A DNA stretch of 64,000 nucleotides from an uncultured Methanosarcinales archaeon (GCA_964351975.1 CAYGPK010000002.1:88772-152771); one strand, 5' to 3'; positions 24,755-59,632 are shown, counted from the stretch's first letter. The notes: a model not told the origin generated them from the sequence alone. Program-made: numbers and translations.

Positions 24755-26572
24755 TTAAGGATAAGTCAAAGTAAAATTCTTAGCAACATTTCCAGTCCAA
24801 GATGACTCACCTGTAACATCAAGTAAAGTTACTTCTTCTCCTGTAAAATCTCCAATATTAGATGCTAAAAGTTTGAAATCTTGTGGAGCTCTAGGATTTC
24901 CTTGAGGTATTAATAATATATTAGTAGGTACAATCTGATTTCCAGAACCTAAGTCAATTTCAAGCCAACCATAACTCTGAACACTAGTATGCCAAGAAGC
25001 AGGATCGGTTAAATCCCCATCAAAAGCAATGTATGCTGCTTGACCACCACTATTTGCACTTGATGCTGACGCTACTAATGGTGAAGGCAATGAATTAGAT
25101 GTCATATTAGAAGTTGGATATTCAATTCCATTTTCAAATAACATCATTTCAGCAATAGCTGTATAAGAATCTCCATTATTAGAACTTATATTCAAACGAA
25201 AATACCTATAACCAGCATTTACAGTAATTGAATCACTAGAAGACCTTAATCCACTATAACAACCAATATTATAAGTTTTAGTTACATCTGTGTAAACAAT
25301 TTGACTTCCTGAACTATTAAGAGTTCCACTCCAATCTCCACTAGCTAAACAGTAATCTGAATACTCTGAAGTCCAATTAAGTGATATTGAATTATTTCCC
25401 CCATAGATCATGGAATTATTTGCAGTAAAATTAATAATCACTTCTTGTGGAGCATTTGTAACAGTAAAATTTTTAGGAACATTTGCAGTCCAAGATGTTT
25501 CTCCTGAAACATCAAGTAATGTGTCTTCTTCTCCACTAAAAGAACCAGTATTAGATGCTAAGATTTTAAAATCTCTAGGATCTCTACTAAAACTATCACC
25601 TAATCCAATTAATGTTAAAATATTAGGAGCAATTGTATTTCCAGAACCTAAATCTATTGTCACCCACCCTGAAGTTTGACCTACAGAGGTATGCCAACCT
25701 GGTGGATTTGTTAAATCTCCATCAAAAGCAACAAATGCTGCTTGAGTACCCCCATTTTCAGTAGATGCTGAAGCTACAAGTGGTGAGGGTAATGAATTTG
25801 TAGTCATATTAGAAGTTGGATATTCAATCCCATTATCAAATAACATCATCTCTACAAGAGCCGTATAAGAATCTCCATTATTAGCAGTAATATTTAAACG
25901 AAAATATCTATAATCATTATATTGGAAAACTGAGACATTTAAAGTTGAAGAAACAGAGTCACAAGTTAAAGTATAACTTGAATTTTCAGTTGGACTAAGA
26001 ACTTCACTACTGTTAATTGTTTTACTTCCACTCCAATAACCACTACCGCTACAACTATCAGCACCATTAGATGTCCAACTTAAATTTATACTAGAACCAT
26101 TGTAAATATAACTAGTATTTGTTGAAAAAGTCAAACTAATATTACCTGAACTAGAATTGCTAGATGAACTTGTGATTTGATTTGTCAAATACAATTTCTT
26201 ACTAAACACTTTTTGATTTGAAATTACAACAACTTCATTAGAACCACTTGTTCCGTTAACACAACTACTTACATCGATAGAGCTAACACCAGGAGATAAA
26301 CTCTGCGAAACATTACAACTAACACCACCAACCCTAATACTACTAATTGTAATATTACTTGTTCCTGAATTCATAAAATAAAGAGTTCCATCAATTATAC
26401 TATCAATATTAGAACTACTAACGCTATCTCCAGACTGAACTTCGACATCACCAAAAATATTACTAGAATAAGTATTAAACCAAGTTTGAAAACTAACTAC
26501 GGCAACAATTGCAACAACTAAAAGTAAACCACTAGCTATAACAGGACCAATGGCTTTATTACCAACAAACAT
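24755..26572 (-). CDS. Archaeal type IV pilin-like (Pilin_N-type class III signal) protein with two [Ig-like + discoidin/F5-8-type-C-like] modules
   Basis: N-terminus MFVGNKA/IGPVIASGLLLVVAIVAVVSFQTWFN. Two modules carry YRYFRLNI..NNGDSYTA..EMMLF...A(F/Y)(V/I)AFDGDLT....WHTS....GW..IDLGSGN....DFK(I/L)LASN. Confidence 0.8.
   Translation of the reverse strand: MFVGNKAIGPVIASGLLLVVAIVAVVSFQTWFNTYSSNIFGDVEVQSGDSVSSSNIDSIIDGTLYFMNSGTSNITISSIRVGGVSCNVSQSLSPGVSSIDVSSCVNGTSGSNEVVVISNQKVFSKKLYLTNQITSSSSNSSSGNISLTFSTNTSYIYNGSSINLSWTSNGADSCSGSGYWSGSKTINSSEVLSPTENSSYTLTCDSVSSTLNVSVFQYNDYRYFRLNITANNGDSYTALVEMMLFDNGIEYPTSNMTTNSLPSPLVASASTENGGTQAAFVAFDGDLTNPPGWHTSVGQTSGWVTIDLGSGNTIAPNILTLIGLGDSFSRDPRDFKILASNTGSFSGEEDTLLDVSGETSWTANVPKNFTVTNAPQEVIINFTANNSMIYGGNNSISLNWTSEYSDYCLASGDWSGTLNSSGSQIVYTDVTKTYNIGCYSGLRSSSDSITVNAGYRYFRLNISSNNGDSYTAIAEMMLFENGIEYPTSNMTSNSLPSPLVASASSANSGGQAAYIAFDGDLTDPASWHTSVQSYGWLEIDLGSGNQIVPTNILLIPQGNPRAPQDFKLLASNIGDFTGEEVTLLDVTGESSWTGNVAKNFTLTYP
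24758..25212 (-). repeat. Internal duplication, copy 2 (C-terminal discoidin-like module)
   Basis: Nucleotide-level repeat of 25460..25914, offset ~702 nt. I counted 17 mismatches over a ~132-nt stretch (25078.. vs 25780..). Confidence 0.8.
25460..25914 (-). repeat. Internal duplication, copy 1
   Basis: See 24758..25212. Confidence 0.8.
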
Positions 26573-34128: not shown

Positions 34129-35532
34129 CTAAAATATAAACATTAAAATAAATCCAATAAATAATGCTGGTAAAAATGCAATTCCATCTTTAACGTAGAG
34201 TTTTGTAAGTTCTTTATTATGTTTTGCAAGTTCTTTAATTTTAGCAAGTTGAAACTCATCAATACCTATTTTAAAATCTGAAATTTGATAGTATAATTTA
34301 TCTTTTATTTTAATATCTTGAACAATCCAATCTCCAAGAACAATTTTATCAAGTGGTTTTTGTGAAACAAATACAAAACTTTCAACAGCTTTTGCAATTT
34401 TAACAAATAAATAAATAGGAAATAAAATTAAAAACCAGCTAAATTTAATACCAAAAAAACCTATTAAAAAAAGTATTAAAAAAAAAAGAGGGAAACTAGC
34501 AAATTTTTCCAATTTATTAAATGATAATTCAACTTTTTTAAAGTTCTTAATAAAAAGATAGAGAACTAAAAATACTGCAATTACACCTCCTGCCATAAAT
34601 GAATAAAATAAAAATTTAAGCATAAATGATAAAATCCCTAAATTTGTTTTTGCAAGTGATTCAATTGTTACAATTTTAAAAAGATAAACTACAAAATTTA
34701 AACCAATAAGAATTGAGTAAGGGAAAATTTTTCTAACATCAATAAATCCTTCACCTTCCTCTTTAACATTTTCTCTAATCTCATGAACTTGTTCATTTGA
34801 TAAAACTTTATATCCGCTCTCATCAACATCAACTAATTTTTTTTTATTAAAAATCAAATCCGAATCAATAACATCACCTGATTTTAAATCCATATAATCT
34901 TTTTTATATTTAATAAACACAGAAGAAAAAGATCCTTCTCTTGCAAAAAATATTAAAATAAAAACTATAAATCCAATTAGAACAAGTGTTAAAGAATCAT
35001 ATTTAAAATACAGACCTAAAAATAATAAAAATAATACTATAAACAAATATAATAAATTTTGACCCTCATTTCTATTCTTAATTGAAAGAAATCTCACAAG
35101 TAAAAATAAAATAAATAAACCATCTAAAAATAAAATATAAGTTAAAAAAGTATCTAAAAACAAACTAATTCCAAGCGATAACAAATCTACAAAATAATTA
35201 TAAACAAAACCTGTATTTTCGATTTGTAAAACAAAGCTCATCAAATAATAAGAAGCACCAGAAAAACCTAAAATAAATTTAGAATCACCTCCACCCCAAA
35301 TTCCAAAATAAAATAACATTGCTCCAAATGCAAAACCTATAGTCATACCAAAACTAACATATTTTATAGGATCATAAGAAGAAATTACAAAACTATGAAC
35401 AATAGCTACAATTAAAATAATAAAAGCAAGTGAAAAATTAAGATAATCATAAACTTCTCTTTTTTTTATGTCTTCATAACAAGCTAAAATAAATGCAAAT
35501 AAAATTAAAATTAGAACAAAATATTCAATCAT
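34129..35532 (-). CDS. A24-family prepilin peptidase homologue fused to a long polytopic extension with a soluble insert
   Basis: ACYEDIKKREVYDYLN (first Asp) and GIWGGGDSKFILGF (GxGD). This is followed by more TM helices, a ~70-aa charged soluble segment, more TM helices and a soluble C-terminal region. Confidence 0.65.
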   Translation of the reverse strand: MIEYFVLILILFAFILACYEDIKKREVYDYLNFSLAFIILIVAIVHSFVISSYDPIKYVSFGMTIGFAFGAMLFYFGIWGGGDSKFILGFSGASYYLMSFVLQIENTGFVYNYFVDLLSLGISLFLDTFLTYILFLDGLFILFLLVRFLSIKNRNEGQNLLYLFIVLFLLFLGLYFKYDSLTLVLIGFIVFILIFFAREGSFSSVFIKYKKDYMDLKSGDVIDSDLIFNKKKLVDVDESGYKVLSNEQVHEIRENVKEEGEGFIDVRKIFPYSILIGLNFVVYLFKIVTIESLAKTNLGILSFMLKFLFYSFMAGGVIAVFLVLYLFIKNFKKVELSFNKLEKFASFPLFFLILFLIGFFGIKFSWFLILFPIYLFVKIAKAVESFVFVSQKPLDKIVLGDWIVQDIKIKDKLYYQISDFKIGIDEFQLAKIKELAKHNKELTKLYVKDGIAFLPALFIGFILMFIF

Positions 35533-39505: not shown

Positions 39506-39620
39506 AAGAAGGTTCATATAGCTTCGGGTTACACCTGTTCCCATCTCGAACACAGAAGTTAAGACGAGTTAGCCTTTACGAGTACTGTTATCTAACGGAA
39601 AAGTAGAGGTGACCTTCCAC
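39506..39620 (+). rRNA. rrf: 5S ribosomal RNA (ends +/- 5 nt)
   Basis: Conserved core cacctgttcccatctcgaacacagaagttaag. The terminal helix GAAGGU (39508..) pairs with ACCUUC (..39617). G+C-rich island in an AT-rich spacer. Confidence 0.85.
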
Positions 39621-43952: not shown

Positions 43953-45053
43953 CTAATCTAAAATAGTAACTATCTTATCTTTATTTTGTTTAATATATTT
44001 TTTCAAAATCTTTAAATCATCAATTTTAACTTTTCCAATAAATAAGTCTTTTACATCATTTTTTTCAGCAAATTTTTTAACTTTTAAATATCCACTAAAA
44101 TAAACATAATCCTTCGTAAAACCCCCTTTTTGTGAAGTGTCACATAAATTTCTCTTAACCCTAAAAGTAATTGCAAATGCAGCATCATCTCTAAATTCTA
44201 GTTTTTTTAAAATCATAAAAATTTCATAAAAGCTTTTCTTAGGAGCGTAATAAGATGCAATAACACGCCCTGCATAAATAAACATTTGCGCCTTAGAACT
44301 AACTCCTTTTAACTCTTCCATATAAGCTGCAAGACCTTCCTCAGTTTCCAAATAGTTCTTAGTTCCAGTCTCAAGAATTCTTCTACCTAAAAGATGACCA
44401 TTGTAATATCTCATATAATGTGTTCCAATTTCATGTACTTTTAATCTCTTCAAATCAAGACTTGTAAAAGTTTCATCTGGGTTAATTTGTATTAAATTTG
44501 CATAAGCTTCAATGTTTACTTTAGCATTAATTTGTGCATATCTAATAGTTATATTTTTTCCAGTTAATCTCTTAACTTCTTTTTTTAAGTCATCACCAAC
44601 AACCTTGGGAGTTATTCTTTTAAATCTAACTTTTTCTCTCTCAAATTCCTTACAAAATTTCATAGCTTTTTTAAACAAAAAATAATTAGGTAACCCCCAA
44701 TATTTAATAGCGTAAACAGATCCAAGAGGATGTCCCCAATGATTATGATAATTAACTTGAAGAATTTTATTTTTAATAACTTCAAGATATAATTTCTTAA
44801 AACCAAATTTATTACCTGATTTGAAAGTAAAATTGTTCAATTCTTCAAGAACTTCAATATTTTGTTTTTTTTTTACATATCTTAGTTGTGGGTTATATAT
44901 TTCATCATCTACTAATGCCTTAAAAAAAGTTTTTTTTTCAGATTGTAAATTAAGAGGTTTTGGAAAAATAAATGAAAATTTATTTAATATTTCAAAATAA
45001 TCTTTTTCTATCTCTTCAATCTCTCTCCAATACTTCTCCTCTTTATCTTTCAC
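43953..45053 (-). CDS. DUF1704/MATCAP-like putative metallocarboxypeptidase (QEGLA-motif family)
   Basis: VHEIGTHYMRY (HExxxH-type) and ETEEGLAAYME (EGLA motif) at the spacing I recall for this family. Confidence 0.45.
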   Translation of the reverse strand: MKDKEEKYWREIEEIEKDYFEILNKFSFIFPKPLNLQSEKKTFFKALVDDEIYNPQLRYVKKKQNIEVLEELNNFTFKSGNKFGFKKLYLEVIKNKILQVNYHNHWGHPLGSVYAIKYWGLPNYFLFKKAMKFCKEFEREKVRFKRITPKVVGDDLKKEVKRLTGKNITIRYAQINAKVNIEAYANLIQINPDETFTSLDLKRLKVHEIGTHYMRYYNGHLLGRRILETGTKNYLETEEGLAAYMEELKGVSSKAQMFIYAGRVIASYYAPKKSFYEIFMILKKLEFRDDAAFAITFRVKRNLCDTSQKGGFTKDYVYFSGYLKVKKFAEKNDVKDLFIGKVKIDDLKILKKYIKQNKDKIVTILD

Positions 45054-45558
45054 TTTCTAATAAACCTCTAAATGTGAAATTAAATTGTTTTGCTCTATCA
45101 AGAGAAGTTTTAGCTTTACTTCTTTTAATACTTGAAGAAGTCTCATATTGAAATTTAGATCTTTTTAGTCTTTCTAATTCATAATTTTCAACTAAAGATT
45201 GAGATAAAGATAAAGCTTCTTCTTTTTCCTCTTCATAATTCTCTAAGAAATCATAGATTTCTTGATTTTTAACTAATACAAATAAACTATCTGAAACTAC
45301 TTTATGGACTATTTTATGTGAAACCTTATATCCTAATTTTAACAAATAAGCATTAGCTAAATAAAATTGAGAATAATAAGAAATAACTATTACACATAAA
45401 TCTGAGTTATTTTCATTAAAAAGTTTATTTGCAACTTCCAAGCTTTCTTGAGAATTTTTCAAATAAGTATCATAAATTAGAGGATTAAAATCAACTTTCT
45501 TTATTAGCCCATCATTCAAATACTGTTTAAAATTTTGCTCTGCTTTTTTTCTATCCAT
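45043..45558 (-). CDS. HEPN-like helical protein (partner of the upstream nucleotidyltransferase)
   Basis: ESLEVANKLF......VISYYSQFYLANAYLLKLGYKVSHKIVH is HEPN-like. Overlaps the MNT gene by 8 nt. I see no Rx4-6H motif. Confidence 0.45.
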   Translation of the reverse strand: MDRKKAEQNFKQYLNDGLIKKVDFNPLIYDTYLKNSQESLEVANKLFNENNSDLCVIVISYYSQFYLANAYLLKLGYKVSHKIVHKVVSDSLFVLVKNQEIYDFLENYEEEKEEALSLSQSLVENYELERLKRSKFQYETSSSIKRSKAKTSLDRAKQFNFTFRGLLESER

Positions 45559-46126
45559 TTTTTATTAAATCATAATAACTTTCAATACCAAATAAGATAA
45601 TATTTTTTTTAGTTATTTCAGAAGAAATGTCTACATTTTTTACATTTAACATTGATTTATATTCTTCAAATGAAAAAGTCTGTAAATGAATATCAAGAGG
45701 TAAAATTGAAAATTTTGAAGTTATTTTTTTTACTATCTCATTATTATCACAAATTATACAAATATCTATATCTGAATTTTTATTTTGTTTATTATTAACA
45801 TAAGAACCAAAAAGTAAAACAATTAAAAAAGAATAATTTAAGCTATTAATATCATTGAATACCCTTTTAATATCCTTACTTCTTTCAATAACTTTTAATC
45901 TTCTTCGAGTTTCGACTTCTAAAACTTTTTTATTAAAATTAAAATTAAATGATATTTGATTTGAATTTCCTACTTTTTTTAAATTAATTAAATTTTCAGT
46001 TTCTAATCTTTTTATAATTTCATATGTTACCTTATAACTAATTTCTAAGTTTTTAGAGATTTCATTAATTGTATAAATTTTATCATTATTTTCAATTAAG
46101 TAAGTTAATATTTTCATCTCAGTCAT
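45551..46126 (-). CDS. wHTH-fused minimal nucleotidyltransferase (MNT)
   Basis: N-terminal ILTYLIENNDKIYTINEISKNLEISYKVTYEIIKRLETENLI (wHTH). LLFGSYVNNKQNKNSDIDICII (GSx10-12DxD NTase motif). Confidence 0.65.
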   Translation of the reverse strand: MTEMKILTYLIENNDKIYTINEISKNLEISYKVTYEIIKRLETENLINLKKVGNSNQISFNFNFNKKVLEVETRRRLKVIERSKDIKRVFNDINSLNYSFLIVLLFGSYVNNKQNKNSDIDICIICDNNEIVKKITSKFSILPLDIHLQTFSFEEYKSMLNVKNVDISSEITKKNIILFGIESYYDLIKNG

Positions 46127-46238: not shown

Positions 46239-46940
46239 TTAATCATCTTCTTCTGCTTTAATTCCTAGAATATTTTGCATCTCTTTTCTAATTTCTGGAA
46301 CTTGTTCACAGTAATCAGGTGCTCCATTAAAGTAATCAAAACCTTCTTCAAAGATACTCATAATAATTTGCGCAAGTGCCATAGTATCTGTTGCAATAAG
46401 AAAAGCTGAAGCTGCAATTAATTGACCAGAAGTAGGAGTCCCAACAAAAGAACAAATCCAAGAACTAGCACCAGGGAAACATGAACCTGTAACTAATGTT
46501 CTTGCAACTTTAGTTCCAGCAGCCCATAATAAACCAATTGGATTTTCAAGTATTTGAGCAACTGCTGCTCTAAAAAATTCTAATATTGCCATTGGAGGTA
46601 GAGCAAATATCTCTCCAACAATGTATTTACACATATTATACTCATACTCTTTAGTACAAAAAGCAGGATCTATTCCAACTTTAACAGCCTCATAAGTACA
46701 AACAATTTGTCTACATTTGTATTGTCTTTGCTCTTCTACTTTCTCAATAATACCTGGCAAACATCCAGTAACTGCAGATAATATAAATGAATCTTTAACT
46801 TCGCCACTAAATCCTCCACACATACTCTGAACATCAGATCTATAAGGTGCTGCTGAAACTGTATTTATATTCATAGGAATTATAAAAATTAAACTTAAAA
46901 TTAAAAAAATACCAAAGAAACTATTAAATTTATTTTTCAT
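46239..46940 (-). CDS. Secreted Cys-rich protein with amphipathic/hydrophobic helices (233 aa)
   Basis: Signal FFGIFLILSLIFIIPMNINTVSAA. More than 10 Cys. G/A/V/P-rich and K/N-poor relative to neighbours. Its start lies 2 nt after the upstream stop. Confidence 0.7.
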   Translation of the reverse strand: MKNKFNSFFGIFLILSLIFIIPMNINTVSAAPYRSDVQSMCGGFSGEVKDSFILSAVTGCLPGIIEKVEEQRQYKCRQIVCTYEAVKVGIDPAFCTKEYEYNMCKYIVGEIFALPPMAILEFFRAAVAQILENPIGLLWAAGTKVARTLVTGSCFPGASSWICSFVGTPTSGQLIAASAFLIATDTMALAQIIMSIFEEGFDYFNGAPDYCEQVPEIRKEMQNILGIKAEEDD

Positions 46941-46942
46941 TT

Positions 46943-49762
46943 TTATGGACCAAACCTCTTCATTAATGGATCAGTATCTCCACAAACTGCACCAGCTAAT
47001 TCATTTTGAACATCTATCAAATCTCCCAATACAGGGATATCACCTAAAATATCACTATTTGAAGTTCCAACAGAGTCAGTAACCATTCCTAAAATATGAG
47101 CTCCATTACGACAAGTTACCCAATCACAGGCTGCTTTAATAGGCCCAGTTATATCAGATAAACTATCTAATAATCCATCTTTTGAAACTTCTAAAGCTCC
47201 TTGGGTATTAACTGAGGCTTTGTTTCCTAAATGTGTTTCCCAACATTGGGCAAAACCTACTGGTTGTGGCGTTGGACAAGGTATAAGTACACCTGAAGCC
47301 GGATTTATCTTACTAATTACAGGAGTTCCAATTTGACAACTTACACCTGGAACAGCAAGTACTGGATAAGTTACAGAGACTGAAGCTTCTATAGAAAGAG
47401 ATGTACATTCAACAAATGCTTCAGAATCAGTTAAAACTTTATAACTTTTATATATATCCGTTGCAGTAGTCAATACACCACCACCAGTTGTTACAACATT
47501 ACACAATTCACTTAGTAAATGATAAATACTAAATAAAGTATCAAACCAACCCTCAGCCCAAGCAACTTCATTTGTCATAGAAAGTATATTACTTGCTTGT
47601 CTTTCTAATAAATCTCCACCTGGAACATCAAAGAAACTAAAAACAACGTTAAATTCAACAAGCTCAGGAGCATAAACTTGTGTATCATCTCTCTTTAAAA
47701 CTGACATTGTACATTTCATATTAATATCATTTAAATCTCCTAAATTAGGATGATTTCGCAGTTCAAAAAATAAAGCAAAATCCAAATCATCTCCTTCTCC
47801 TACAACAACTCCATTTTCTGGATATAAACCAAAATCTAAAATAATTAGTGGATCAATATTACTCTCATCACAACTTTGTAATTGATAATTAATAACAGTC
47901 ATCTGATTATCTTTTGTTGTAAGCTTTCCTTCAAACCAAGCTGTTCCACCACGAGATTTCATAACATCATGATTAATTGGATTTAAAGTATTAATATTTG
48001 AAATTTTATAAGAACTTACAACTTCATTTGAAACTTTAAAAATCTCAACCCTATAATCTGAAATAACAGTATTTCCTGCTGAATCCGAAATAGTAAAATG
48101 AACCTCCCTATCTAAATAACCATTAACAACTTCAATTCCATTAAAATCACATTGAACTGTATTTTCACTATACAAACTACAAAGGCCAGCTTTTTCTTCA
48201 AACCCATCCCTAAAATCAATCTCTGAAAAATCTCCAAAAATAAAATATTCTCCATTATACAAATTAGAATCTGATACTCTAATTCTAAAATTTACTTTCT
48301 CCATTGACTTTAAAATTCCATCTTTAATAGATTCAGTCTCAATAAATTCAATGCTATCAATAGTTGGTTCAGTATTATCAACTACAAAATTTAATTCTTT
48401 TACATTATAATTACCATACAAGTCTGAAACACCAACCCTCAAAGTAAAACTTTTATCATCTGAATTAGCAAATGCTGAGACACCACCTGATAATTCCCAA
48501 ATACATTCACCTGAATCTCCAACAAACGTACAATCCTTAATTGGGAAAGGTAAGCTTCCAAACTCCTCAGCAACTACAACTCCTCCTTCTGAAACACTCT
48601 CATCTGTAAATTTCAAAACAACTCTGGCATTTGTATCAGTTGAGCTTAAAATATTTCTAACCCCTAAACTATTCTCCAAATAAAACTCACTGATAACTGG
48701 CCCAGTTTTATCAACAAAAATTTCTTCATTAAAAGTTTGTAATCCTGTATTTAAAACAACATCATTCGAACTAAATTTAATTGGAACTGTAGTTGTATCA
48801 CCTAAAGTGATTTGTACATCATTAAAATTACAAGTAAAAGTATCTAGACTTATCTTTGTACAAGAACCAGTCATAACACCAACAGAAGGGTTAATTGGAG
48901 TTAAATCTGCAGTTACAACAGGAACAAAAGAATCCACAATTTCAAAAGATTCATCTTTAACATCAACACTTAAAGACACACGCCTAGTCCCATCATATTC
49001 GTAAACTTTTCTTAAATTTAAATATGAAGGTCCATTACCATCAACAGTTAAATCTACAGATTTAACATTTCTAAAACCAAGTTTATCTTCTGCTGTAAAA
49101 GTGTATGTTCTACTTGAACTAGGTGTATCAACAAACTCTCCAGTATAAGAACCATCAGAATCAAAACTTATAATTTGTGAAATTCCTCCAGTAATAGAGA
49201 GATAATCTAAACCAGAACCAGAATCAGAAACTGTATAATCTACACTAAACTCATCACCAGATTTAATAATAGAATCAGCTGAAGTAACAAAACTATCAAA
49301 AGCTGGTGCAGAATTATCTGGTAAGAATTGTAATGATCCACTTCCACTTCCACCAATTAAATTTGAAACACTGTAAGTCGATAAAAATGGACTTGTAACT
49401 ACAATCTCAACATCAAAAGTAAAAAGAACCTTAGTTAAATAATTACTTCCAGATGCAGAAGTTATTACTGAATTTGCATTAATTTGACTTCCTGTTGAAA
49501 ATAATTTGAACTTAAAAGAATCGCTATCATAACAACTGTTTTCATCATTTAAAATACTATATTCTAAAGTTAAAGGATTTGCATCTAAATCTGCTCTAAT
49601 ATAAACTTGATCAGAATCATCAAAGCTTCCTAAATTTTTTGAACCAGAACTAATAGCAATAGAATCAGGAATAATTTTACAACTTGCAAAAACAGAATAA
49701 GAAGAAAAAGTTAAAACTATACCTAAAGTTAATACAAAGAACAGTTTCTTTAAGTTAATCAT
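46943..49762 (-). CDS. Secreted 939-aa protein: Ig-like repeats followed by a Cys-rich, G/V/T-rich C-terminal domain
   Basis: Signal LFFVLTLGIVLTFSSYSVFA. SDSGSGLDYLSI and EPTIDSIEF Ig-like hallmarks. C-terminal ~250 aa contain VTTGGGVLTTATD and many Cys. TATA-like box 22 nt upstream. Confidence 0.75.
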   Translation of the reverse strand: MINLKKLFFVLTLGIVLTFSSYSVFASCKIIPDSIAISSGSKNLGSFDDSDQVYIRADLDANPLTLEYSILNDENSCYDSDSFKFKLFSTGSQINANSVITSASGSNYLTKVLFTFDVEIVVTSPFLSTYSVSNLIGGSGSGSLQFLPDNSAPAFDSFVTSADSIIKSGDEFSVDYTVSDSGSGLDYLSITGGISQIISFDSDGSYTGEFVDTPSSSRTYTFTAEDKLGFRNVKSVDLTVDGNGPSYLNLRKVYEYDGTRRVSLSVDVKDESFEIVDSFVPVVTADLTPINPSVGVMTGSCTKISLDTFTCNFNDVQITLGDTTTVPIKFSSNDVVLNTGLQTFNEEIFVDKTGPVISEFYLENSLGVRNILSSTDTNARVVLKFTDESVSEGGVVVAEEFGSLPFPIKDCTFVGDSGECIWELSGGVSAFANSDDKSFTLRVGVSDLYGNYNVKELNFVVDNTEPTIDSIEFIETESIKDGILKSMEKVNFRIRVSDSNLYNGEYFIFGDFSEIDFRDGFEEKAGLCSLYSENTVQCDFNGIEVVNGYLDREVHFTISDSAGNTVISDYRVEIFKVSNEVVSSYKISNINTLNPINHDVMKSRGGTAWFEGKLTTKDNQMTVINYQLQSCDESNIDPLIILDFGLYPENGVVVGEGDDLDFALFFELRNHPNLGDLNDINMKCTMSVLKRDDTQVYAPELVEFNVVFSFFDVPGGDLLERQASNILSMTNEVAWAEGWFDTLFSIYHLLSELCNVVTTGGGVLTTATDIYKSYKVLTDSEAFVECTSLSIEASVSVTYPVLAVPGVSCQIGTPVISKINPASGVLIPCPTPQPVGFAQCWETHLGNKASVNTQGALEVSKDGLLDSLSDITGPIKAACDWVTCRNGAHILGMVTDSVGTSNSDILGDIPVLGDLIDVQNELAGAVCGDTDPLMKRFGP

Positions 49763-49844: not shown

Positions 49845-52800
49845 TTAATTTAATGGTTTTTCAGCAAACGCTATGTAAATAAAAGACCCACTATTTGCAT
49901 TAACTTCTGCTCCAGCATTTCTAAGCTTAAATCCATTTGATAAGAAGTCAAAATAACCTGCAGTATTTTCAGCCTCAGTTGTACTAGCTCTTAAATATCC
50001 ATCAAAAGGATTATATCCAACTCTTTTTGAATCTTGTATTCTCCAATCTCCAGTAGAATCTGTTCTTTTAATCATAACAAAAGCAGGTTTAAATCCAGTA
50101 TAAATAACAGGTCCGTCTGTGTTTCCATTACCTGTATAGCTTCCAATCTTACTAAATCCTTCTTTCTCTGCAAATAAATAAGCAATCATCCTATTTGTAT
50201 TTCCATTAACACCAACATTAGTTCCTATTGTAAAAACTTCAGAAGTAGGTTGGGTTCTGTTAAAGGTAGGAGTATTTAGAACATTTGTATCAAGAGCATT
50301 TGAAGTAAAAGTAAAAAAATTATTTGCAGGAGCACCATTAACATTAAGATTCGAAACAGATTGATGATAAATAGTCCAACTATTTGTTGTATCTAAATTC
50401 TTGAAAATCATTAAAGCAGGAACTACTCCTAAACTATGGTTTATTGAACGAGCTGTTGCAGTTCCAGTATAAGATACAATATCAAAAATACTTTCATTCT
50501 CTTTCCAATTCCAACTTACAAAATCTTCAGTATTATCATTATAACCACTAGCACCTGTTCCTAATTCAAAACCATCAGAATTAAAATTAGTTAAACCATT
50601 TGAATCTGTCCCTTCAACAGCAGTTGAATCAGAACTCAACTCTTTTGTAACACCACGCAAACTATCTATTAATTTATGCTCATCTGTTGTATCACGATTC
50701 TTAATCCAAACTAAATCTGGACTAAATGATAAACCAGTAATGTTTCTTACAGCAGAATTTCCAGTATAAAGAATTGTATCAAAGAATTCACTAGCATTAA
50801 CTTTTCCAGTTATGTTGTTAATATTATTAACGCTTAATGCTTTGAATCCACTAGGTGGAGTATAAACAAAACTTCCTCCTGCAGAAGAATTGTAAGTTGT
50901 TGAACTTCCACTTAAACTAGATAATTGTCCAAAATTAATTCTCTGAGAATTTGTAGCTATTCCTGTTCCATCTCCAACCATTGAAAAAACTTCTCCGGTT
51001 ATTCCATTTAAAAAAGCTCCAATATTATTTGATGGATCTCCTATAACATCACTACTGTTATCTAACCAAACTCCATCAATACCAAACCAAATTTTACCCT
51101 CATCCATATCTAAAGCAACCATTATAGTATTTGTACTATCAAATGCCCAAGATGAATTATCAGGAGTTGAAGTTGTAAGTGTTCCGCCAATAGGATTGTC
51201 ATGATAACGTCCATTAAAATTTAGAACCCAATTTCCAACTCCATCATTTTGATTACCACTACTTTGACTTAAATCTGTATGTGAAGAATAAACTCCAACT
51301 TCTCCTCCATTACCAGTTTGATCAACTTCCCAATACCATTTACCTGAACTTACTCCTAGCGTAGCTACTTCTCCTGCAAGATTAGATGAGGTTATATCTA
51401 AATTTCCATTTGAAAATGTCCCTGAACCTGTTGTTATTGGATTTAAAATCGCAAAATTATTTGTAGGCACATCAGTTACTTGATCATCACTTGGCGCATC
51501 TAAAATTGTAGCAGAAGCAGTCGGAGGAGTAAAATCTCTTGTCCAAAGAGCTTTTCCTTTAGTAATTCTGATTTCATCAAAATATCCTGATGAATAATCA
51601 GGAGAAGAACCATAATCTCTAGCTCCTATTCTTATTTCTCTATCATTATTATAAATAGTAGAAGATGATGATGTTGAACTAACCCTAGTTCCATTAATAT
51701 ACAAACTAAAATTATTACCATATCTTGTAACTGCTATATGATGCCAACTATTTTCTGAAATATTTAAAAGACTACCTGAATATAAATTTGCAATCTCAGA
51801 GTTTCCATCATTTGATGCTTGAAATAATATTTCTCCTTGAGAACCAGTACTATGAATTGCCCACCCCTTATTTGATGTCGGACCTGAACCCCATTTGCTA
51901 AATAAAGTTTGATAAGCACTCAAATCATTTGGATTAAACCAAAAATCAATGGTAAAGTCTCCTGTTCCAAACTCTAGTTCTGAAGTATCTGAAATACTTA
52001 AATAATCTCCACTCCCATCAAAATAAATTGAAGAGTTACTAAACTTACTATTATTTGTTTCGTGGCTAACATCTCCATTAGCAGTTATACTGTGCCCTAT
52101 TCCACTTGAATCAACAAAAATAGTTGAACCATCACTATTGTCTGAATGAATTAATAATCCTTGACCTTCCTCTATATTATTCACTGTAAAATTATTAGCA
52201 TTTCCACTAAAATCCCTTCCTAAATTAGTAGATTGATTAAATGGTAAATAAAAACCATTTGTCCCATAACTTCCTTTAGAAGTGTTTGTAACATTAAATT
52301 CTTTAGGAATCCAATTTCCATAAGAATCATTTTCTCCAAAATACTCTGGACCAAGTGCTTGTCCATCAACAAAATTAACATCTGACATATAACCATCAAA
52401 ATAATTTGAAGCAGCTGCATTACTTCCTATTGCATGAACATATTGACCATTTATAACATCATTACCAGAAGACCAAGTATAACCATTAGCATTTAAACTT
52501 TGAAGTTCTCCATTAACATAAATTTTAATAGCATCACTTAATGAGGCTTGAGTTGAATCATGATACAAAACAATATGATTCCAATTATTTATATCTCTAA
52601 ATAAAGCATCAGTAGAAGCATATGCAACATACCCTGAACCTCTTTGAGTTGAAAAATGTAGTTGATTAGTATTTCTGAAATATAATCCTGCAAAATTATT
52701 CCCATCTTGATAACCATTAAAAATACCTTGCCAAGTATCTAATGTTCCTCTTTTAATCCAACCACTCCAAGTCCAAGTTGTTCTATTACCTTCTACACCC

Positions 52801-53327
52801 GGAGTCCTATTCAAATAAGCACTATCTCCATCATTAAATAGCAAACTATTACTGGCACCATAACTAGAACTACTACTAACTGATTCTTCTTCACTAGAAT
52901 TAGAGCTCAAAGAAGTACTTGCACTAACATTACGATTGTAAAAATAAGTTGAATAAGGTCCCTTATTTGTATAAACAACAGCTTCAATCTTACTACTTGT
53001 TAAATTAGTTGTACAATTGCTATTCAAACTAATTTGAGTCAAACTATCGCCATTCGCAGTCAGACTCCCCAAGTTACAGGAATTACCACCAATTTTAACA
53101 TCAGTAATTGTCAAATTCTCAGTAAAACCATTACGAAAATATAAAGTATCACCTAACAATTGGTCAATTTTTGTTTGAGAAACACTACTAGAACTTTTAC
53201 TCTCAACATCAGAAAATAAAGTTGTAGAATAAGAATTAAACCAAGTTTGAAAACCAATAATTGCAACAACAGCAACAACAATTAACAAAGAACTCGCAAT
53301 AACAGGACCTATTCCCTTTTTATTCAT
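49845..53327 (-). CDS. Pilin_N-type class III signal peptide protein (1160 aa) with two LamG-like domains, one SPRY-like domain and a repeated C-terminal motif
   Basis: N-terminus MNKKG/IGPVIASSLLIVVAVVAIIGFQTWFN. LamG-like WTWSGWIKRG...IVLYHD and FTIDFWFNPND...WHHIAVTRYGNNFSLYINGT. SPRY-like SGKWYWEV...IMVALDMDEGKIWFGIDG. TTTATAAA 22 nt upstream. Confidence 0.8.
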   Translation of the reverse strand: MNKKGIGPVIASSLLIVVAVVAIIGFQTWFNSYSTTLFSDVESKSSSSVSQTKIDQLLGDTLYFRNGFTENLTITDVKIGGNSCNLGSLTANGDSLTQISLNSNCTTNLTSSKIEAVVYTNKGPYSTYFYNRNVSASTSLSSNSSEEESVSSSSSYGASNSLLFNDGDSAYLNRTPGVEGNRTTWTWSGWIKRGTLDTWQGIFNGYQDGNNFAGLYFRNTNQLHFSTQRGSGYVAYASTDALFRDINNWNHIVLYHDSTQASLSDAIKIYVNGELQSLNANGYTWSSGNDVINGQYVHAIGSNAAASNYFDGYMSDVNFVDGQALGPEYFGENDSYGNWIPKEFNVTNTSKGSYGTNGFYLPFNQSTNLGRDFSGNANNFTVNNIEEGQGLLIHSDNSDGSTIFVDSSGIGHSITANGDVSHETNNSKFSNSSIYFDGSGDYLSISDTSELEFGTGDFTIDFWFNPNDLSAYQTLFSKWGSGPTSNKGWAIHSTGSQGEILFQASNDGNSEIANLYSGSLLNISENSWHHIAVTRYGNNFSLYINGTRVSSTSSSSTIYNNDREIRIGARDYGSSPDYSSGYFDEIRITKGKALWTRDFTPPTASATILDAPSDDQVTDVPTNNFAILNPITTGSGTFSNGNLDITSSNLAGEVATLGVSSGKWYWEVDQTGNGGEVGVYSSHTDLSQSSGNQNDGVGNWVLNFNGRYHDNPIGGTLTTSTPDNSSWAFDSTNTIMVALDMDEGKIWFGIDGVWLDNSSDVIGDPSNNIGAFLNGITGEVFSMVGDGTGIATNSQRINFGQLSSLSGSSTTYNSSAGGSFVYTPPSGFKALSVNNINNITGKVNASEFFDTILYTGNSAVRNITGLSFSPDLVWIKNRDTTDEHKLIDSLRGVTKELSSDSTAVEGTDSNGLTNFNSDGFELGTGASGYNDNTEDFVSWNWKENESIFDIVSYTGTATARSINHSLGVVPALMIFKNLDTTNSWTIYHQSVSNLNVNGAPANNFFTFTSNALDTNVLNTPTFNRTQPTSEVFTIGTNVGVNGNTNRMIAYLFAEKEGFSKIGSYTGNGNTDGPVIYTGFKPAFVMIKRTDSTGDWRIQDSKRVGYNPFDGYLRASTTEAENTAGYFDFLSNGFKLRNAGAEVNANSGSFIYIAFAEKPLN

Positions 53328-53349: not shown

Positions 53350-53357
53350 TTTATAAA
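53350..53357 (-). promoter_or_regulatory. TATA box (TTTATAAA) for 49845..53327
   Basis: 22 nt between the box and the ATG at 53327. Confidence 0.55.
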
Positions 53358-53389
53358 ACTTTTTAACTAAAAAAATAAATATGAATAAC

Positions 53390-55414: not shown

Positions 55415-56182
55415 TTAACCAAACACAAATACAAATACTTCGTTAATCGCAATTTTAGCATAACCAATAAAAGGAACCCTTGCTATACTAACACCTATAA
55501 TTTTGTCTTCAATTATATCATTCTCAAAATTTTCAATTGATCTAGGGTTATGATCACCCTTAGTTCTAAAATGATATTTACCATCATCATCCATCCATTT
55601 ATCAACAATTCTATGAATAACTGGTCCTTTCTCAACAAAAAATCTCTCATCTTGTGGAATAAAAACTAAAACTTCACCAATTTCAATTTTAGATGGATCT
55701 TTTCCATATAATACCATAACATCACCGATATTAAGTCCATTTTTGTATTCAAATTCTCTAAATTCCTCAGAAGTCAAATTATAATTACTTTCATAGTAAT
55801 TGCCACAAAAACTCCACCACTCATCAAAATCTAAATTCTTTTTCTTAACATCCATAACATTAACATTACAAACATTTGAAAAAGAGTATGACTCTTTCAA
55901 ACAAGCTTTTTTAGTTCCCAAAAGTCCAAATAAAATATTTTTATCACCCACACTTGAACAAGAATAAGTTGGAACTATTTTATGCTCCATACTACCAGAT
56001 ACAATTGCAACAATGGGATAGTCATTATTTAAAATAAATCCTAGTCCTGGAAAAAGTAAAAACTTAATTACAACAAAGGCAACTGCAAAATTTAATACAT
56101 AAGATCCAAAAGAGTCATCATACCAAAGATAATTCCAAAACTTCTTTAGAAAAACTAAAATCTGTTCTAATTTTTTATTCAT
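55415..56182 (-). CDS. Signal peptidase I (S26B/Sec11-type) with a Cys-containing insertion
   Basis: VSGSMEHK (Ser box), VIHRIV (His box), TKGDHNP. N-terminal TM anchor. Confidence 0.8.
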   Translation of the reverse strand: MNKKLEQILVFLKKFWNYLWYDDSFGSYVLNFAVAFVVIKFLLFPGLGFILNNDYPIVAIVSGSMEHKIVPTYSCSSVGDKNILFGLLGTKKACLKESYSFSNVCNVNVMDVKKKNLDFDEWWSFCGNYYESNYNLTSEEFREFEYKNGLNIGDVMVLYGKDPSKIEIGEVLVFIPQDERFFVEKGPVIHRIVDKWMDDDGKYHFRTKGDHNPRSIENFENDIIEDKIIGVSIARVPFIGYAKIAINEVFVFVFG

Positions 56183-56194
56183 ACTTTAAAAAAC

Positions 56195-58957
56195 CTATTT
56201 CTTTTTATTATCTTTTCCCTTTTTATTCTTATAATAATTCTCGAAATCATCTGCATCCTTATCTATTGAGTTAGACTTCTTAGAAACATCTTCAAGTTCT
56301 TTGGATTTATTATAAAACTCATCAACATCTTTTTGAGAAATCTCTCCTTTCTTCTCACTCATGTGTGTATCTTCATATTTCTTAACCTTACCTTTACTAC
56401 TTCCTTCAAATTTGTCAAAAATATCACTTCCTTTCTTTAAAGTTCCATCTATAAACTCATTCAGTTTATTATAATTATGTTCATAACTATCTTTCTTTTC
56501 TGAACTCTTTGTTTTATTAAATAAAGACTTCTTATTAGAACTATTAGAAGAAGAACTATTATTACTAGATTTACTCCCTTTATTATCATCTTTAGGAACA
56601 ATTCCAAATTTCTCTAATTGCTCATCTAAATATCCTTTCCTATAAGCATAATAACTTCCCCCACCTAAACTTGCAAGAACAAATACAAGAGCAGCAATTA
56701 TTCCTAAAGCACCCCCACCAGAATTCGTTTCAGGTTTAAAATTTGAAGGAGTGAATGGGTCTATTTCCTGTTCTTCTTCAACTTCAAAAGTTACATTCTC
56801 AAAATTTTCAGTTATATTTTCATCTGGAGTTTCAAAATCAAAAAGAATTACTTTTTGAGCTGTAACTTCATTACCAACTCCATCTCTTCCTAAAGCACAA
56901 ATATAATTATAACCCTCAATTAAAACACTTGAATTTAAATCATATGTAATTGAAGGATTACACTCAATAGAAGTTTTTGCAAGTCCATATTTAATTAAAT
57001 TACACCCACTCTCCAAATCGAAACAAGAAATGGATACTCTATCCCCTAAATTATTAAAACTAATAACAGGATCTGTCAAATCAAATTTAACTATTTTCTC
57101 AAGAGTTGAACTATTAACATTAATTATACTTTGAACTTTAACACTAATTTTAGAAGCTGTTTTAAAATCTCCAGAAATTGAATCTGAATTAGAAGAAACA
57201 ACCTCTGTAACACTACCATTTTCTAAAAATACAGTAATATAATATTTTTCAATTGGTGTTAAAGATTCAACATCAAAGTCAAACCCAATGTTATTATAAC
57301 TTGAAACATAATTACTTCTAATTCCTGAATTTACAAAAGTTAAATTTGATAATTTAGGTCCATCTAAATCATAAACAACATTTAGTGAATCTGACCATAT
57401 CTCACCCTCTTTTTCACAATAAATATAAAACTTATTATCCCCAACTGAAAGTCCAGATGCTTGAAAACTTTTTTGTAATCCAGAACCTGAAAGTTCAGTT
57501 AAAGAATCAAAATCAGATGTTGATTTTTGACTAGAACTAAATCTACAAATAGACTCCTCACTAAGTACAACTGAAACATCAGTTGTTTGTAAATTTGTAT
57601 ATTTAGGATTAAAATCAACAACCTTAACACCATTTAAACTATCAACTTTTACACTTCTACTCTCTTTATCAATATTATATAAAACATCAAAACACTCAAA
57701 ATTAAAATTATAACTTCCATCACTTAATGATAAATCAAATTTATTATGATTAAGAAAATCAGAACTACTCAAATAAACATCAGAACCTCCTAAATTATAT
57801 TTACAAACAGCGCCAGAACTAGTTTTTACATTTACATCAAATAAATTAGAACTTACTAAAGAATTTGGTAAAATCAAATCAATATTAACTGGATTACCAT
57901 TATATTTTTTAATATTAATCAGTCCAGGAATATTCATCTCTTTTGATAAATAAACAACATCATCAGGATAAATTGGATTTTGACAAGCAACCCAAATCTT
58001 TGAATTAAGAACATTCATAGATGCACTATGTGTTAAACCATTGGAAGAGTCCATTTTAGTTTTTTGTGATACATCATAAATTTCCCTAAATGAAAGTAAA
58101 CTCGTTGAATAATAACAAGTAGAAAATTTTGAGGTCCTAACTGTTAATTTATATTCATCATCAGAAACATAAATTGTATTTGCAAAAAACTCTCTAAAGT
58201 TTTTATCAAAAAAATAATTCAAATTACTATCTTCTTTTTTAGTAACTAAACTAACAGTTAAATCAGAATTTCTAAATAAAATATCAAAATTTGAAATACC
58301 TTTATTTAAAGCTAAATCTACATACTCAACACTTAAAATATTTCCACCTTCTTTAAGTTTAGATAAATCAACTAAATATTCAAAATTATTAAAATAATCT
58401 TCTTCAAAAGAACTAGGATTACTAAAAGATTTTACAGTAACCCCATTTAGTTTAATATTATAAGATAACAGATTTTCATTAAATCTAAATTTAATTACTT
58501 TATCAAAAGTATTAATATTAATTCCTAAATCAACAGACGGAGAATATAATTTTGGAACTTCTTTATCAACAATAATTTCAAAATTAGTAGGATCACCAAG
58601 TGGAGTTATTTGCTTATCATCAAAACCAATAGCATCTAAACTAAAAAATATCTCATCTGAACTAGTTAAATTTAAAACACCAAAATCTACACTTGAAATA
58701 AAACCATAATCTAAACTATCACCAACTCCTAGAAAATCATTAATTTCTTTAATATTATCAATTGAATTAACATTCAAATTAGCACTCTGAATTCTAACAG
58801 GTTCATTAGGACTCTCAATTGATAAATTAATCCCAGGATCAGAATTTGAAACATAATACAGATAATTTGAATTTCTATCATAAACTCCTATTGAAAAAAC
58901 CAAATTTGTTAAAAAAAATAATACCAAAATATATACAATTGATTTTCGATACATCAT
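56195..58957 (-). CDS. Type I membrane surface protein (920 aa): signal, beta-rich ectodomain, TM, K/S/N-rich cytoplasmic tail
   Basis: Signal IVYILVLFFLTNLVFS. TM segment GGGALGIIAALVFVLASLGGGSYYAY. ~190-aa charged tail. Confidence 0.75.
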   Translation of the reverse strand: MMYRKSIVYILVLFFLTNLVFSIGVYDRNSNYLYYVSNSDPGINLSIESPNEPVRIQSANLNVNSIDNIKEINDFLGVGDSLDYGFISSVDFGVLNLTSSDEIFFSLDAIGFDDKQITPLGDPTNFEIIVDKEVPKLYSPSVDLGININTFDKVIKFRFNENLLSYNIKLNGVTVKSFSNPSSFEEDYFNNFEYLVDLSKLKEGGNILSVEYVDLALNKGISNFDILFRNSDLTVSLVTKKEDSNLNYFFDKNFREFFANTIYVSDDEYKLTVRTSKFSTCYYSTSLLSFREIYDVSQKTKMDSSNGLTHSASMNVLNSKIWVACQNPIYPDDVVYLSKEMNIPGLINIKKYNGNPVNIDLILPNSLVSSNLFDVNVKTSSGAVCKYNLGGSDVYLSSSDFLNHNKFDLSLSDGSYNFNFECFDVLYNIDKESRSVKVDSLNGVKVVDFNPKYTNLQTTDVSVVLSEESICRFSSSQKSTSDFDSLTELSGSGLQKSFQASGLSVGDNKFYIYCEKEGEIWSDSLNVVYDLDGPKLSNLTFVNSGIRSNYVSSYNNIGFDFDVESLTPIEKYYITVFLENGSVTEVVSSNSDSISGDFKTASKISVKVQSIINVNSSTLEKIVKFDLTDPVISFNNLGDRVSISCFDLESGCNLIKYGLAKTSIECNPSITYDLNSSVLIEGYNYICALGRDGVGNEVTAQKVILFDFETPDENITENFENVTFEVEEEQEIDPFTPSNFKPETNSGGGALGIIAALVFVLASLGGGSYYAYRKGYLDEQLEKFGIVPKDDNKGSKSSNNSSSSNSSNKKSLFNKTKSSEKKDSYEHNYNKLNEFIDGTLKKGSDIFDKFEGSSKGKVKKYEDTHMSEKKGEISQKDVDEFYNKSKELEDVSKKSNSIDKDADDFENYYKNKKGKDNKKK

Positions 58958-59011
58958 TGATAAAAATTCACAAAAAAATAATTTAAAATAATGTAAACAC
59001 TAATTAGTGGG

Positions 59012-59632
59012 TTACCTATAGTAAAGTGCAAGTTCAAGCTCAACATTTCTCTGTGATGTTGCCCAAGTAACCAAACCTGATGTTGCTTTTTTATAACTTA
59101 AACCTCGATAATTTTCAAAATCAACTTTATCTCCACGAAATTCTATTTCACCAAAATTAGTTATAGTTACATTACTTAATAAAGAATTAGAATTACTAGG
59201 CAAATCAATATTTAACACAAAAGGAATAGAACCAACAAGAGCATTAGATGAATCTGAGTTATTATAAATTTCGTGCAAACTTTCATTTAAAATATCTAAA
59301 GCATATTCACAAGACTTAACTTCAAAAGTTGAAAAACTACACTCGATTGTAGGATCATTTCCTGAATAGGTGTAATCCAAACAATAATTTATCAAATCTT
59401 GAACGGTATCTTTTCCATTCTCAACTATACAGCCAGTACTAATTCCCAAAATTGTATCAAGTGATCTTTGTGCAAGTATTTCATATTCAGCTTCTCTTTG
59501 AGAAAGTTCATCACGATTCGGACTAAGAGATTTAATCTGAGAATAAACTAAAACACCAACAATAATTACAACAAATAAAAGGGCAATTCCGAAAATTTCT
59601 CCCTGAGATTTATTTTTAAAAAAACAATTCAT
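59012..59632 (-). CDS. Class III signal peptide (type IV pilin-like) protein
   Basis: MNCFFKNKSQG/EIFGIALLFVVIIVGVLVYSQ. Cys-containing globular domain. Confidence 0.55.
   Translation of the reverse strand: MNCFFKNKSQGEIFGIALLFVVIIVGVLVYSQIKSLSPNRDELSQREAEYEILAQRSLDTILGISTGCIVENGKDTVQDLINYCLDYTYSGNDPTIECSFSTFEVKSCEYALDILNESLHEIYNNSDSSNALVGSIPFVLNIDLPSNSNSLLSNVTITNFGEIEFRGDKVDFENYRGLSYKKATSGLVTWATSQRNVELELALYYR

Follow-up and report, generated by a model that had tools for sequence, protein, structure and literature searches.

A probable archaeal modular type IV pilin with a large cargo shared with marine phage proteins

The present work concerns the gene at 49845..53327 on the minus strand of a 64,000-nt stretch of DNA (the window; coordinates are counted from its first letter, and protein residues are abbreviated as res), which is recorded under the name of an uncultured Methanosarcinales archaeon (GCA_964351975.1 CAYGPK010000002.1:88772-152771). 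The open reading frame (ORF) starts with ATG, is complete and encodes a protein of 1160 amino acids (aa), and the ORF announced in an earlier note on this DNA was thus found again. An identical protein (P0001) is on record; it comes from a contig of 168,689 bp at NCBI. From its N-terminus onwards, the protein is made of a pilin head, a linker, two LamG domains, a SPRY-fold domain and a DUF7483 domain. We regard it as rather likely that this product is an archaeal modular type IV pilin, which would be processed, taken up by the pilus machinery and present its lectin-like string to another cell. In broader terms, the protein is probably an adhesin or recognition protein, displayed on a pilus or at the surface of a DPANN-type archaeon. 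What is new here is an archaeal modular pilin with an unusually large cargo shared with phages; the design itself was already known.

The pilin head and its family

The N-terminus of the protein, MNKKG/IGPVIASSLLIVVAVVAIIGF (the slash marks the predicted cut), qualifies as a class III signal peptide, the context of the cut being KKG/IGPVIA. When the head was aligned with the chains of Iho670 (3J1R and 5KYH, which start with VSPVIATLLLI), I6 fell on residue 1 of these chains. The cut by class III signal peptidase was therefore predicted between G5 and I6 (MNKKG/IGPVIA), which would make I6 the mature N-terminus. The leader (res 1-5, 53313..53327; this and all other parts of the gene lie on the minus strand) is followed by the hydrophobic alpha-1 helix of the pilin (res 6-45, 53193..53312) and by the globular part of the pilin module, a small beta-sandwich (res 46-133, 52929..53192). 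In the AlphaFold2 (AF2) prediction, a 40-residue helix extends over res 6-45 and a compact beta domain, with its strands within res 53-130, comes next, with a predicted local distance difference test score (pLDDT) of 84-94.

Furthermore, res 1-57 matched 8FK7_A, an archaeal type IV pilus subunit of Pyrobaculum calidifontis (PMC10334743), with E-values of 1.5e-5 for the single sequence (phmmer) and 7.8e-8 for the family profile, while the match of Iho670 to the head had an E-value of 0.0067. Judged from these comparisons, the head is a complete pilin module which is homologous to a solved pilus subunit and has stand-alone relatives. The two cysteines C84 and C105, the sole ones of the 1160-aa protein, are both located in the beta domain of the head. 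In an alignment of 22 head sequences C84 is invariant and C105 nearly so, and the matching columns behave alike in an alignment of 109 members; a disulfide between C84 and C105 is probable.

The same head was found in a paralogous modular pilin of 605 aa encoded at 24755..26572 (-), the cargo of which consists of two F5/8-type-C (discoidin) domains and also matches phrog_17517, annotated as 'tail protein'. The two proteins aligned over res 4-156 of the 1160-aa protein (BLASTP, E 7e-18), their heads being 47% identical, and they were the only ones among the window ORFs of at least 50 aa to show the motif [KR][GAS]x(1-3)P[VIL][IVL][GAST] at the N-terminus. The paralogy of the heads, as well as the type IV pilin N-terminus with a small beta domain common to both proteins, had been pointed out in the earlier note, and both are borne out by these data, by the 8FK7 match and by the AF2 model.

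A profile built on the head retrieved 1033 representative clusters at 50% identity, 683 of them with an E-value of 1e-10 or below, and the head was always N-terminal. The family is characterized by the motif [KR][KR][GA] followed by [IVL][SG]P[VI][VI]A. Of the 149 best members, 129 carry a C-terminal extension and 20 (170 aa or less) stand alone. The stand-alone pilins of 127-142 aa correspond exactly to the head module, and are expected to be ordinary small pilins and the major pilins of their cells. In GTDB, the head loci belong to low-GC archaeal metagenome-assembled genomes (MAGs) with several copies per genome, including stand-alone pilins of 134-142 aa; the head was not found in the viral contigs of IMG/VR. 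In 109 fused members, the cargo was identified as Laminin_G_3 (17 members), SBBP propellers (9), DUF285 (7), Gly_rich_2 (6), FGE-sulfatase/CLec (5), PQQ propellers (5), Fibrinogen_C (5), Lcl_C (3) and others.

A modular pilin is composed of a complete pilin module, a linker and modules foreign to the pilus, and this is the organization observed here, with the head at res 1-133, the linker at res 134-158 and the LamG, LamG, SPRY and DUF7483 modules behind it. The protein is an archaeal counterpart of the bacterial "modular pilin" design, which is the prevailing one in the head family. It had been argued in the earlier note that a large cargo on a pilin is atypical. In view of the 129 cargo-bearing proteins among the best 149, this was overstated, as a large cargo is not new in itself; the size, in turn, is extreme, with 1160 aa here and 2001 aa in the homologue P0002.

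Another homologue, P0004 (910 aa, encoded outside the window on a contig that also measures 168,689 bp and is presumably the same one), is 98% identical to the present protein over its first 156 residues, that is, the head and the linker. Beyond res 156, the identity is 49-67% and LamG domain B is missing. Since the heads are nearly the same and the cargos differ, the comparison suggests that a gene conversion or a cassette exchange took place recently at the linker.

A cargo shared with phage proteins

The linker (res 134-158, 52854..52928) was delimited from the AF2 model and from its composition. It is Ser/Glu-rich, with 56% of Ser and Thr, and appears flexible, being predicted without secondary structure at a pLDDT of 33-54 (below 50 for res 134-154). 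It is followed by a first LamG/ConA-like domain, A (res 159-388, 52164..52853), the limits of which are given by the starts of homologues, by phrog_27411 (spanning res 168-557), by AF2 (pLDDT 80-94) and by Foldseek, which returned laminin LG and pentraxin folds. The second LamG/ConA-like domain, B (res 389-607, 51507..52163), was modelled less well (pLDDT 35-80) and matched the S-layer-domain protein 4qvs in the PDB (E 1e-7). Pfam Laminin_G_3 (PF13385) scored 123.5 bits against a cutoff of 27.6 on two stretches, the best of which lies at res 437-589 (E 1.1e-35). The jelly-roll fold was also recognized by Foldseek, with matches to neurexin, laminin LG and pentraxins at E-values down to 4e-13. 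The two LamG domains of the earlier note, placed at positions corresponding to res 167-300 and 440-600, fall inside these Laminin_G_3 stretches and are confirmed.

The SPRY assignment of the same note, placed at the equivalent of res 643-777, holds at the level of the fold and not at that of the Pfam model. In this domain (res 608-844, 50796..51506), Pfam SPRY (PF00622) scored 18.4 bits at res 663-755, under its gathering cutoff of 26.3. The Foldseek search gave SPRY7 with a target-normalized template modelling (TM) score of 0.80 (E 5e-7) as well as the SPRY domains of DDX1, SPSB2 and Ash2L, and sequence matches in the PDB pointed to the SPRY domains of SPSB1 and GUSTAVUS (E about 1e-3). In addition, the homologue P0002 has a SPRY match of 48.5 bits, above the Pfam threshold.

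The distal C-terminal module, DUF7483 (PF24299; res 845-1160, 49848..50795), is supported by Pfam, PHROGs, AF2 and BFVD and is the largest and best-conserved domain of the protein. Neither this domain nor the homology of the whole ectodomain to phage virion proteins figured in the earlier note. The Pfam match extends over res 845-1158 and model positions 2-330 of 330, with an E-value of 1.2e-97 and 327.5 bits against a cutoff of 27. As the Foldseek results of the full-length model were dominated by LamG and SPRY, DUF7483 was modelled separately, which gave a pLDDT of 90.2 and a predicted TM score (pTM) of 0.90. Three internal repeats of about 100 aa were detected (z 7-9.5 versus shuffles), each of which opens with F-x-x-[IV]-x-Y-T-G and contains P-[DA]-[LF]-[VM]-x-[IF]-K-x-x-D-[TS]-T. 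The top PDB matches of the model are pseudo-threefold beta assemblies (SUL-I lectin, the APC-beta domain and the PCSK9 C-terminal domain), and viral models of BFVD superpose on it with TM scores of 0.78-0.90. DUF7483 may be an undescribed pseudo-threefold beta fold abundant in marine phages; no mention of this family was found in our literature search. When DUF7483 copies were ranked by BLAST, those of the pilin-headed proteins P0004, P0005 and P0002 came first (47-60% identity), and the next copies, including that of phage SS120-1, were 41-45% identical. Owing to its distal position and its conservation, DUF7483 is the candidate that we would favour for the ligand-binding end.

More than 4200 database homologues of the protein were found. 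Of the best 120, only four have a pilin head, namely the present protein, P0004, P0005 and P0002. The headless homologues start about 20 residues before the motif SLRFNxxDSAYLxRTPxxxGNRxTWTWSGW, which opens LamG domain A, and several are colinear with the protein from about res 145 to 1159, beginning at about their own residue 4. Comparison with PHROGs gave phrog_19943 'virion structural protein' (E 1.5e-157) and phrog_24898 'tail fiber protein' (E 4.3e-59). By tblastn, 349 phage records were matched, with a coverage of up to 99% and an identity of 29-37%; they include cyanophages, pelagiphages, roseophages and the Methylophilales phage MEP301. Complete proteins of such marine phages run colinear with about res 155-1160. 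The coverage reached 94% for MEP301 gp16 and 99% for S-SRM01, and the matches also include an SS120-1 'virion structural protein' and pelagiphage 'lectin domain' proteins. In podophages, the gene of the homologue adjoins tail-fibre and internal-virion-protein genes.

Such a full-length kinship gives rise to the idea of a phage-type receptor-binding protein grafted whole onto a DPANN pilin, a "tail fibre on a pilus" which would find and hold the host, with the head as a portable carrier and the cargos swapped by recombination. We consider this particular scenario decidedly unlikely. If it were true, episymbionts and phages would share a single stock of modules for host recognition, and could be rivals for the same receptors.

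The LamG modules could also be viewed in another way. With their ConA-like glucanase superfamily fold, they might belong to a secreted or surface-bound carbohydrate-active enzyme, or to a binding protein that scavenges nutrients, and not to a cell-cell adhesin; indeed, Foldseek listed LamG domains associated with glycoside hydrolases, such as BT3469, and the lectin domains of trans-sialidases. This explanation is very improbable in our opinion, given that no catalytic family was found in Pfam or NCBIfam, that all four cargo modules are non-catalytic folds of the binding type and that the homologues are proteins of phage structural regions.

The cargo was also encountered in cells. A scan of GTDB with the whole protein located it only on contigs of MAGs labelled as bacteria or candidate phyla radiation (CPR), and cellular LamG-SPRY-DUF7483 proteins, some of them bacterial surface proteins, are borne by other anchors: P0003, encoded beside SecA and signal peptidase, has a hydrophobic N-terminal segment, and P0020, P0035, P0056 and P0109 have hydrophobic or signal-like N-termini. 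The gene of P0003 (1849 aa, bacterial context, L028 9600..15550, JGI Ga0196980_1000061) is directly preceded by a bAvd gene, an accessory variability determinant of diversity-generating retroelements. FGE-sulfatase/CLec, carried by five of the 109 fused pilins of the head family, is a fold typically diversified by such retroelements. The two observations hint at a possible link between adhesins of this kind and targeted hypermutation.

A further surface protein of the window, of 1150 aa (2272..5724, -), has a Sec-type signal peptide and 26 Cys. It matches Pfam GP38, the tail-fibre adhesin of T-even phages, in a region rich in Gly (res 351-566, 26% Gly), with an E-value of 8.6e-15 and 55.6 bits (cutoff 25). 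It may be a second module resembling a phage adhesin, or the match may be compositional.

Surface display and gene context

We infer cleavage, incorporation into a filament, a position at its tip and the binding of a glycan or host as follows. The precursor would be inserted in the membrane via its class III signal peptide, and MNKKG would be removed by one of two candidate prepilin (class III signal) peptidases of the A24 family encoded in the window, one of 467 aa (34129..35532, -; Peptidase_A24 27.6 bits) and one of 280 aa (13520..14362, +; 30.8 bits), both of which score just over the gathering cutoff of 26.5. The former is unusually long, and its A24 domain is confined to res 9-98. Once processed, the pilin module (res 6-133) would let the protein enter the type IV pilus machinery and, because the cargo is bulky, its most plausible place would be that of a low-abundance or tip subunit. 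The 25-residue Ser-rich linker would then hold out a string of about 1000 residues, made of LamG, LamG, SPRY and the triple-repeat DUF7483. A surface-binding function of this string is likely, since the cargo is homologous over its full length to phage proteins encoded next to tail-fibre genes; the structure bound would probably be a glycan on the surface of another cell which, for a DPANN archaeon of the Woesearchaeota type, would be its host or partner.

Several points weigh against this proposal. Pilin_N (PF07790), the model proposed for the head in the earlier note, did not match the 1160-aa protein even at E-values up to 10. It was matched by four of 22 head-family members, in all cases below threshold, and the only Pfam model to match the present head at all, Flp1_like, scored 16.1 bits against a cutoff of 33.5. 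In terms of these profiles, the head is a family of its own, which no Pfam model captures above threshold. The pilin gene is solitary in the window, and no gene for a pilus assembly ATPase or for a platform protein (TadC/FlaJ-like) was found among the scanned ORFs of these 64 kb, which belong to a contig of at least 168 kb. A cargo of about 1000 residues is possibly incompatible sterically with the body of a filament, and class III signal peptides also occur on surface proteins that do not form filaments, such as the bindosome binding proteins of Sulfolobus (PMC4858521). As far as the cargo is concerned, the phage homologues owe their presumed function to annotation labels and to the position of their genes, not to experiments, and a search of PDB structures with the DUF7483 model gave no convincing counterpart (best TM score 0.33).

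The solitary gene, with no assembly genes nearby, and the very bulky cargo would also be compatible with a membrane-anchored or pseudopilus/bindosome-like surface protein. In such a case, the class III signal would serve for export and anchoring only, and the protein would not become part of a long pilus; after cleavage, the alpha-1 helix would remain within the membrane or a very short stub, with the lectin string decorating the cell surface or the S-layer. The five cellular proteins that carry LamG-SPRY-DUF7483 on other anchors (see above) and the resemblance of LamG domain B to the S-layer-domain protein 4qvs speak for the same arrangement. On the other hand, the head is a complete pilin fold, which also exists as stand-alone proteins of 130-140 aa, and it is homologous to the filament-forming subunit 8FK7. 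We hold a simple anchor to be possible, if unlikely, and favour the modular pilin.

Upstream of the gene, about 27 nt before the ATG, a TATA-like element TTTTATAA (53351..53358, -), preceded by an A-rich motif AAAAAG resembling a B recognition element (BRE), could be read from the sequence. These elements are compatible with a putative archaeal promoter of the gene's own and with a leaderless or near-leaderless mRNA, which constitutes weak evidence at a GC content of 27%; the consensus promoter claimed earlier is retained to this extent. A promoter scan of the upstream region, of bacterial type and not covering archaeal promoters, gave no more sites than were obtained in shuffles.

On the downstream side, two genes for Cys-rich secreted proteins (46239..49762, -) encode 939 aa and 233 aa, with 18 and 9 Cys, respectively, and neither product has a Pfam or NCBIfam domain. 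The earlier note had combined them with the pilin gene into one candidate apparatus for host recognition or attachment. For the 939-aa protein, only three database homologues were found, plus three GTDB loci. The 233-aa gene comes next after the 939-aa gene in all six Woesearchaeota-like genomes (L024, L025, L026, L030, L031 and L032). In the five genomes in which the junction is visible, ZPR1 is situated directly before the pair; 76 to about 340 bp separate them, and a pilin gene is lacking there. When the window was compared with L024, the promoter-proximal sequence of the Cys-rich gene proved to be conserved, and homologues of either Cys-rich protein were absent from the vicinity of other head-family genes (12 loci).

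When the co-conservation of the three genes was checked in this way, the Cys-rich pair turned out to be kept without the pilin gene and to possess its own conserved promoter region. The three-gene system was rejected on the ground that ZPR1 directly precedes the pair in five of five informative Woesearchaeota relatives. The role in attachment or host recognition foreseen in the earlier note thus survives as that of a probable adhesin or recognition protein, and the new three-gene apparatus does not. The Cys-rich genes are a lineage-restricted conserved pair, independent of the pilin gene. Because no pilin gene lies between ZPR1 and the pair in these relatives, the pilin gene is a lineage-specific insertion, 3.5 kb in length and consisting of a single gene, in a conserved housekeeping block, and it forms no operon with its neighbours.

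An insertion of this kind, together with the strong PHROG matches to families of virion structural and tail-fibre proteins and with the 349 phage records, might be expected of a viral tail-fibre or virion gene in an integrated element. Such a proviral origin is extremely improbable to us. A single gene was inserted between ZPR1 and the Cys-rich gene, its flanks are housekeeping genes with no other viral genes, and its head is a cellular archaeal module which is absent from IMG/VR and common to a second chromosomal gene of the window. The provirus was rejected on the gene context, which comprises ZPR1 and the CCA-adding enzyme at one flank and the conserved cellular pair at the other, and on the absence of the head from IMG/VR.

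The window has a GC content of 27% and a gene set of archaeal type, which includes an S13-S4-S11-Rpb3-L13 operon, CDC48, HerA, Cys-, Ala- and Tyr/Trp-tRNA synthetases, the CCA-adding enzyme and ZPR1. A 5S rRNA gene was detected at 39508..39618 (+; 56.4 bits), and the 64 kb contained neither a further rRNA match nor any tRNA gene. In the alignment of the Cys-rich proteins, the syntenic block finds its closest named relatives in genomes recorded as "Candidatus Woesearchaeota archaeon", the complete CP060218.1 among them; on this account, the organism was read as a tiny, presumably symbiotic-type DPANN archaeon resembling Woesearchaeota. Several loci (L010-L017 and L030, from CAZLRR01, CAYSDY01 and CAYLKB01) come from third-party annotation (TPA) MAGs labelled 'uncultured Methanosarcinales archaeon'. 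They have a GC content of 26-33%, several head-family pilins and the Woesearchaeota-type synteny of ZPR1 and the Cys-rich genes, in the light of which their 'Methanosarcinales' label is probably wrong. Locus L021, with 25% GC and labelled Bdellovibrionales, looks like a misbinned archaeal contig.

Two further groups of genes were noted in the vicinity. Between the 233-aa Cys-rich gene and a MATCAP/QEGLA gene, 45043..46126 (-) encodes proteins of 171 aa and 191 aa, the latter with a winged-helix N-terminus and an MntA-like nucleotidyltransferase motif. At this position, L024 and L025 lack both genes, and the two flanking ones are direct neighbours. The same block seems to have received a second small insertion here, possibly a toxin-antitoxin pair of the HEPN/MNT type. 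Upstream of the CCA enzyme, a conserved trio (55415..59632, -) is also present in L024, L025 and L026. It encodes a 206-aa protein with a pilin-like N-terminus, KSQG/EIFGIALLFVVIIVGVLVY, a 920-aa protein with a signal peptide and no domain match, and a 255-aa membrane protein whose GSMEH motif recalls type I signal peptidase. In L012, a homologue of the 206-aa protein is encoded about 2-3 kb from a head-family gene.

Significance and comparison with known systems

How DPANN archaea recognize their partner cells and fasten to them is poorly understood, and most of their pilins lack an annotation. The present analysis defines a large family of pilin heads (about 1000 clusters at an identity of 50%, with the head N-terminal in all of them), which escapes the current Pfam models and in which the bacterial "modular pilin" design is the prevailing state. 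One of its cargos is tied, over its full length, to LamG-SPRY-DUF7483, a very abundant family of virion proteins in marine phages that is itself uncharacterised. Should the cargo serve to bind a receptor in both settings, the study of the phage or of the archaeal protein would inform the other, and the archaeal protein would be a testable candidate for host recognition.

Among archaeal filaments, the flagellar-like type IV pilus of P. calidifontis (8FK7) and the Iho670 adhesion filament of Ignicoccus hospitalis (5KYH/3J1R) resemble the present protein in the leader and in the alpha-1 sequence, and their subunits belong to the same size class as the stand-alone members of the head family (about 130-144 aa). 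They differ from it in that they are simple filament subunits without cargo, and past the helix no sequence similarity is detectable.

Large candidates for adhesins or minor pilins with class III signal peptides have been predicted in archaeal type IV pilus loci (PMC4858521; bioRxiv 10.64898/2026.04.22.720090). A signal peptide of class III, the large adhesin-type C-terminal part and the predicted role in attachment are common to these proteins and to the one described here. However, they are encoded inside pilus loci, whereas the present gene is solitary, and they have another head and another cargo, with no phage-homologous cargo reported.

In DPANN archaea, giant LamG surface proteins, namely the SPEARE proteins of Nanohaloarchaeota and Sec-secreted LamG proteins (PMC9563170), share with the present protein the LamG domains and a supposed function in the contact between symbiont and host. 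In contrast to it, they are Sec-exported or are much larger multi-enzyme proteins, and have no pilin fusion (PMC9563170). In the genomes of one DPANN study, no pilins could be annotated (PMC9563170).

With the LamG-SPRY-DUF7483 proteins of marine phages, the likeness concerns nearly the whole ectodomain, which is homologous and has the same modules and the same DUF7483 fold. Examples are MEP301 gp16 'SPRY domain containing protein', SS120-1 CYYG_00029, the 'lectin domain containing protein' of Pelagibacter phage HTVC031P and the protein of S-SRM01. Unlike the archaeal protein, the phage proteins lack both the pilin head and a signal peptide, begin some 20 aa ahead of LamG domain A and are encoded in structural modules. 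The number and order of their modules vary, and many are arranged as LamG-DUF7483-SPRY-DUF7483.

In bacteria, more than 1200 modular pilins with 264 architectures have been described, in which the lectin cargo PF13385 is common (PMC8179133, Raynaud et al. 2021). Streptococcus sanguinis PilC is a pilin with a ConA-like lectin and PilB a pilin with a vWA domain (PMC8179133; Shahin et al. 2023, PMC9934059), and both were shown or proposed to be tip adhesins (PMC8179133). The present protein resembles them by its small complete pilin module, its linker and its non-pilus, ligand-binding type of module, as well as by the adhesion proposed at the tip. In contrast to them, it is archaeal and known from sequence alone, its head forms a separate family, and its leader is of class III (KKG/IGPVIA), not the IPR012902 motif, with neither the G/F..E5 pattern nor Glu5. 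Finally, it carries four modules in a cargo of about 1000 aa, the most extreme multi-domain modular pilin mentioned for bacteria having 860 residues in all (PMC8179133).

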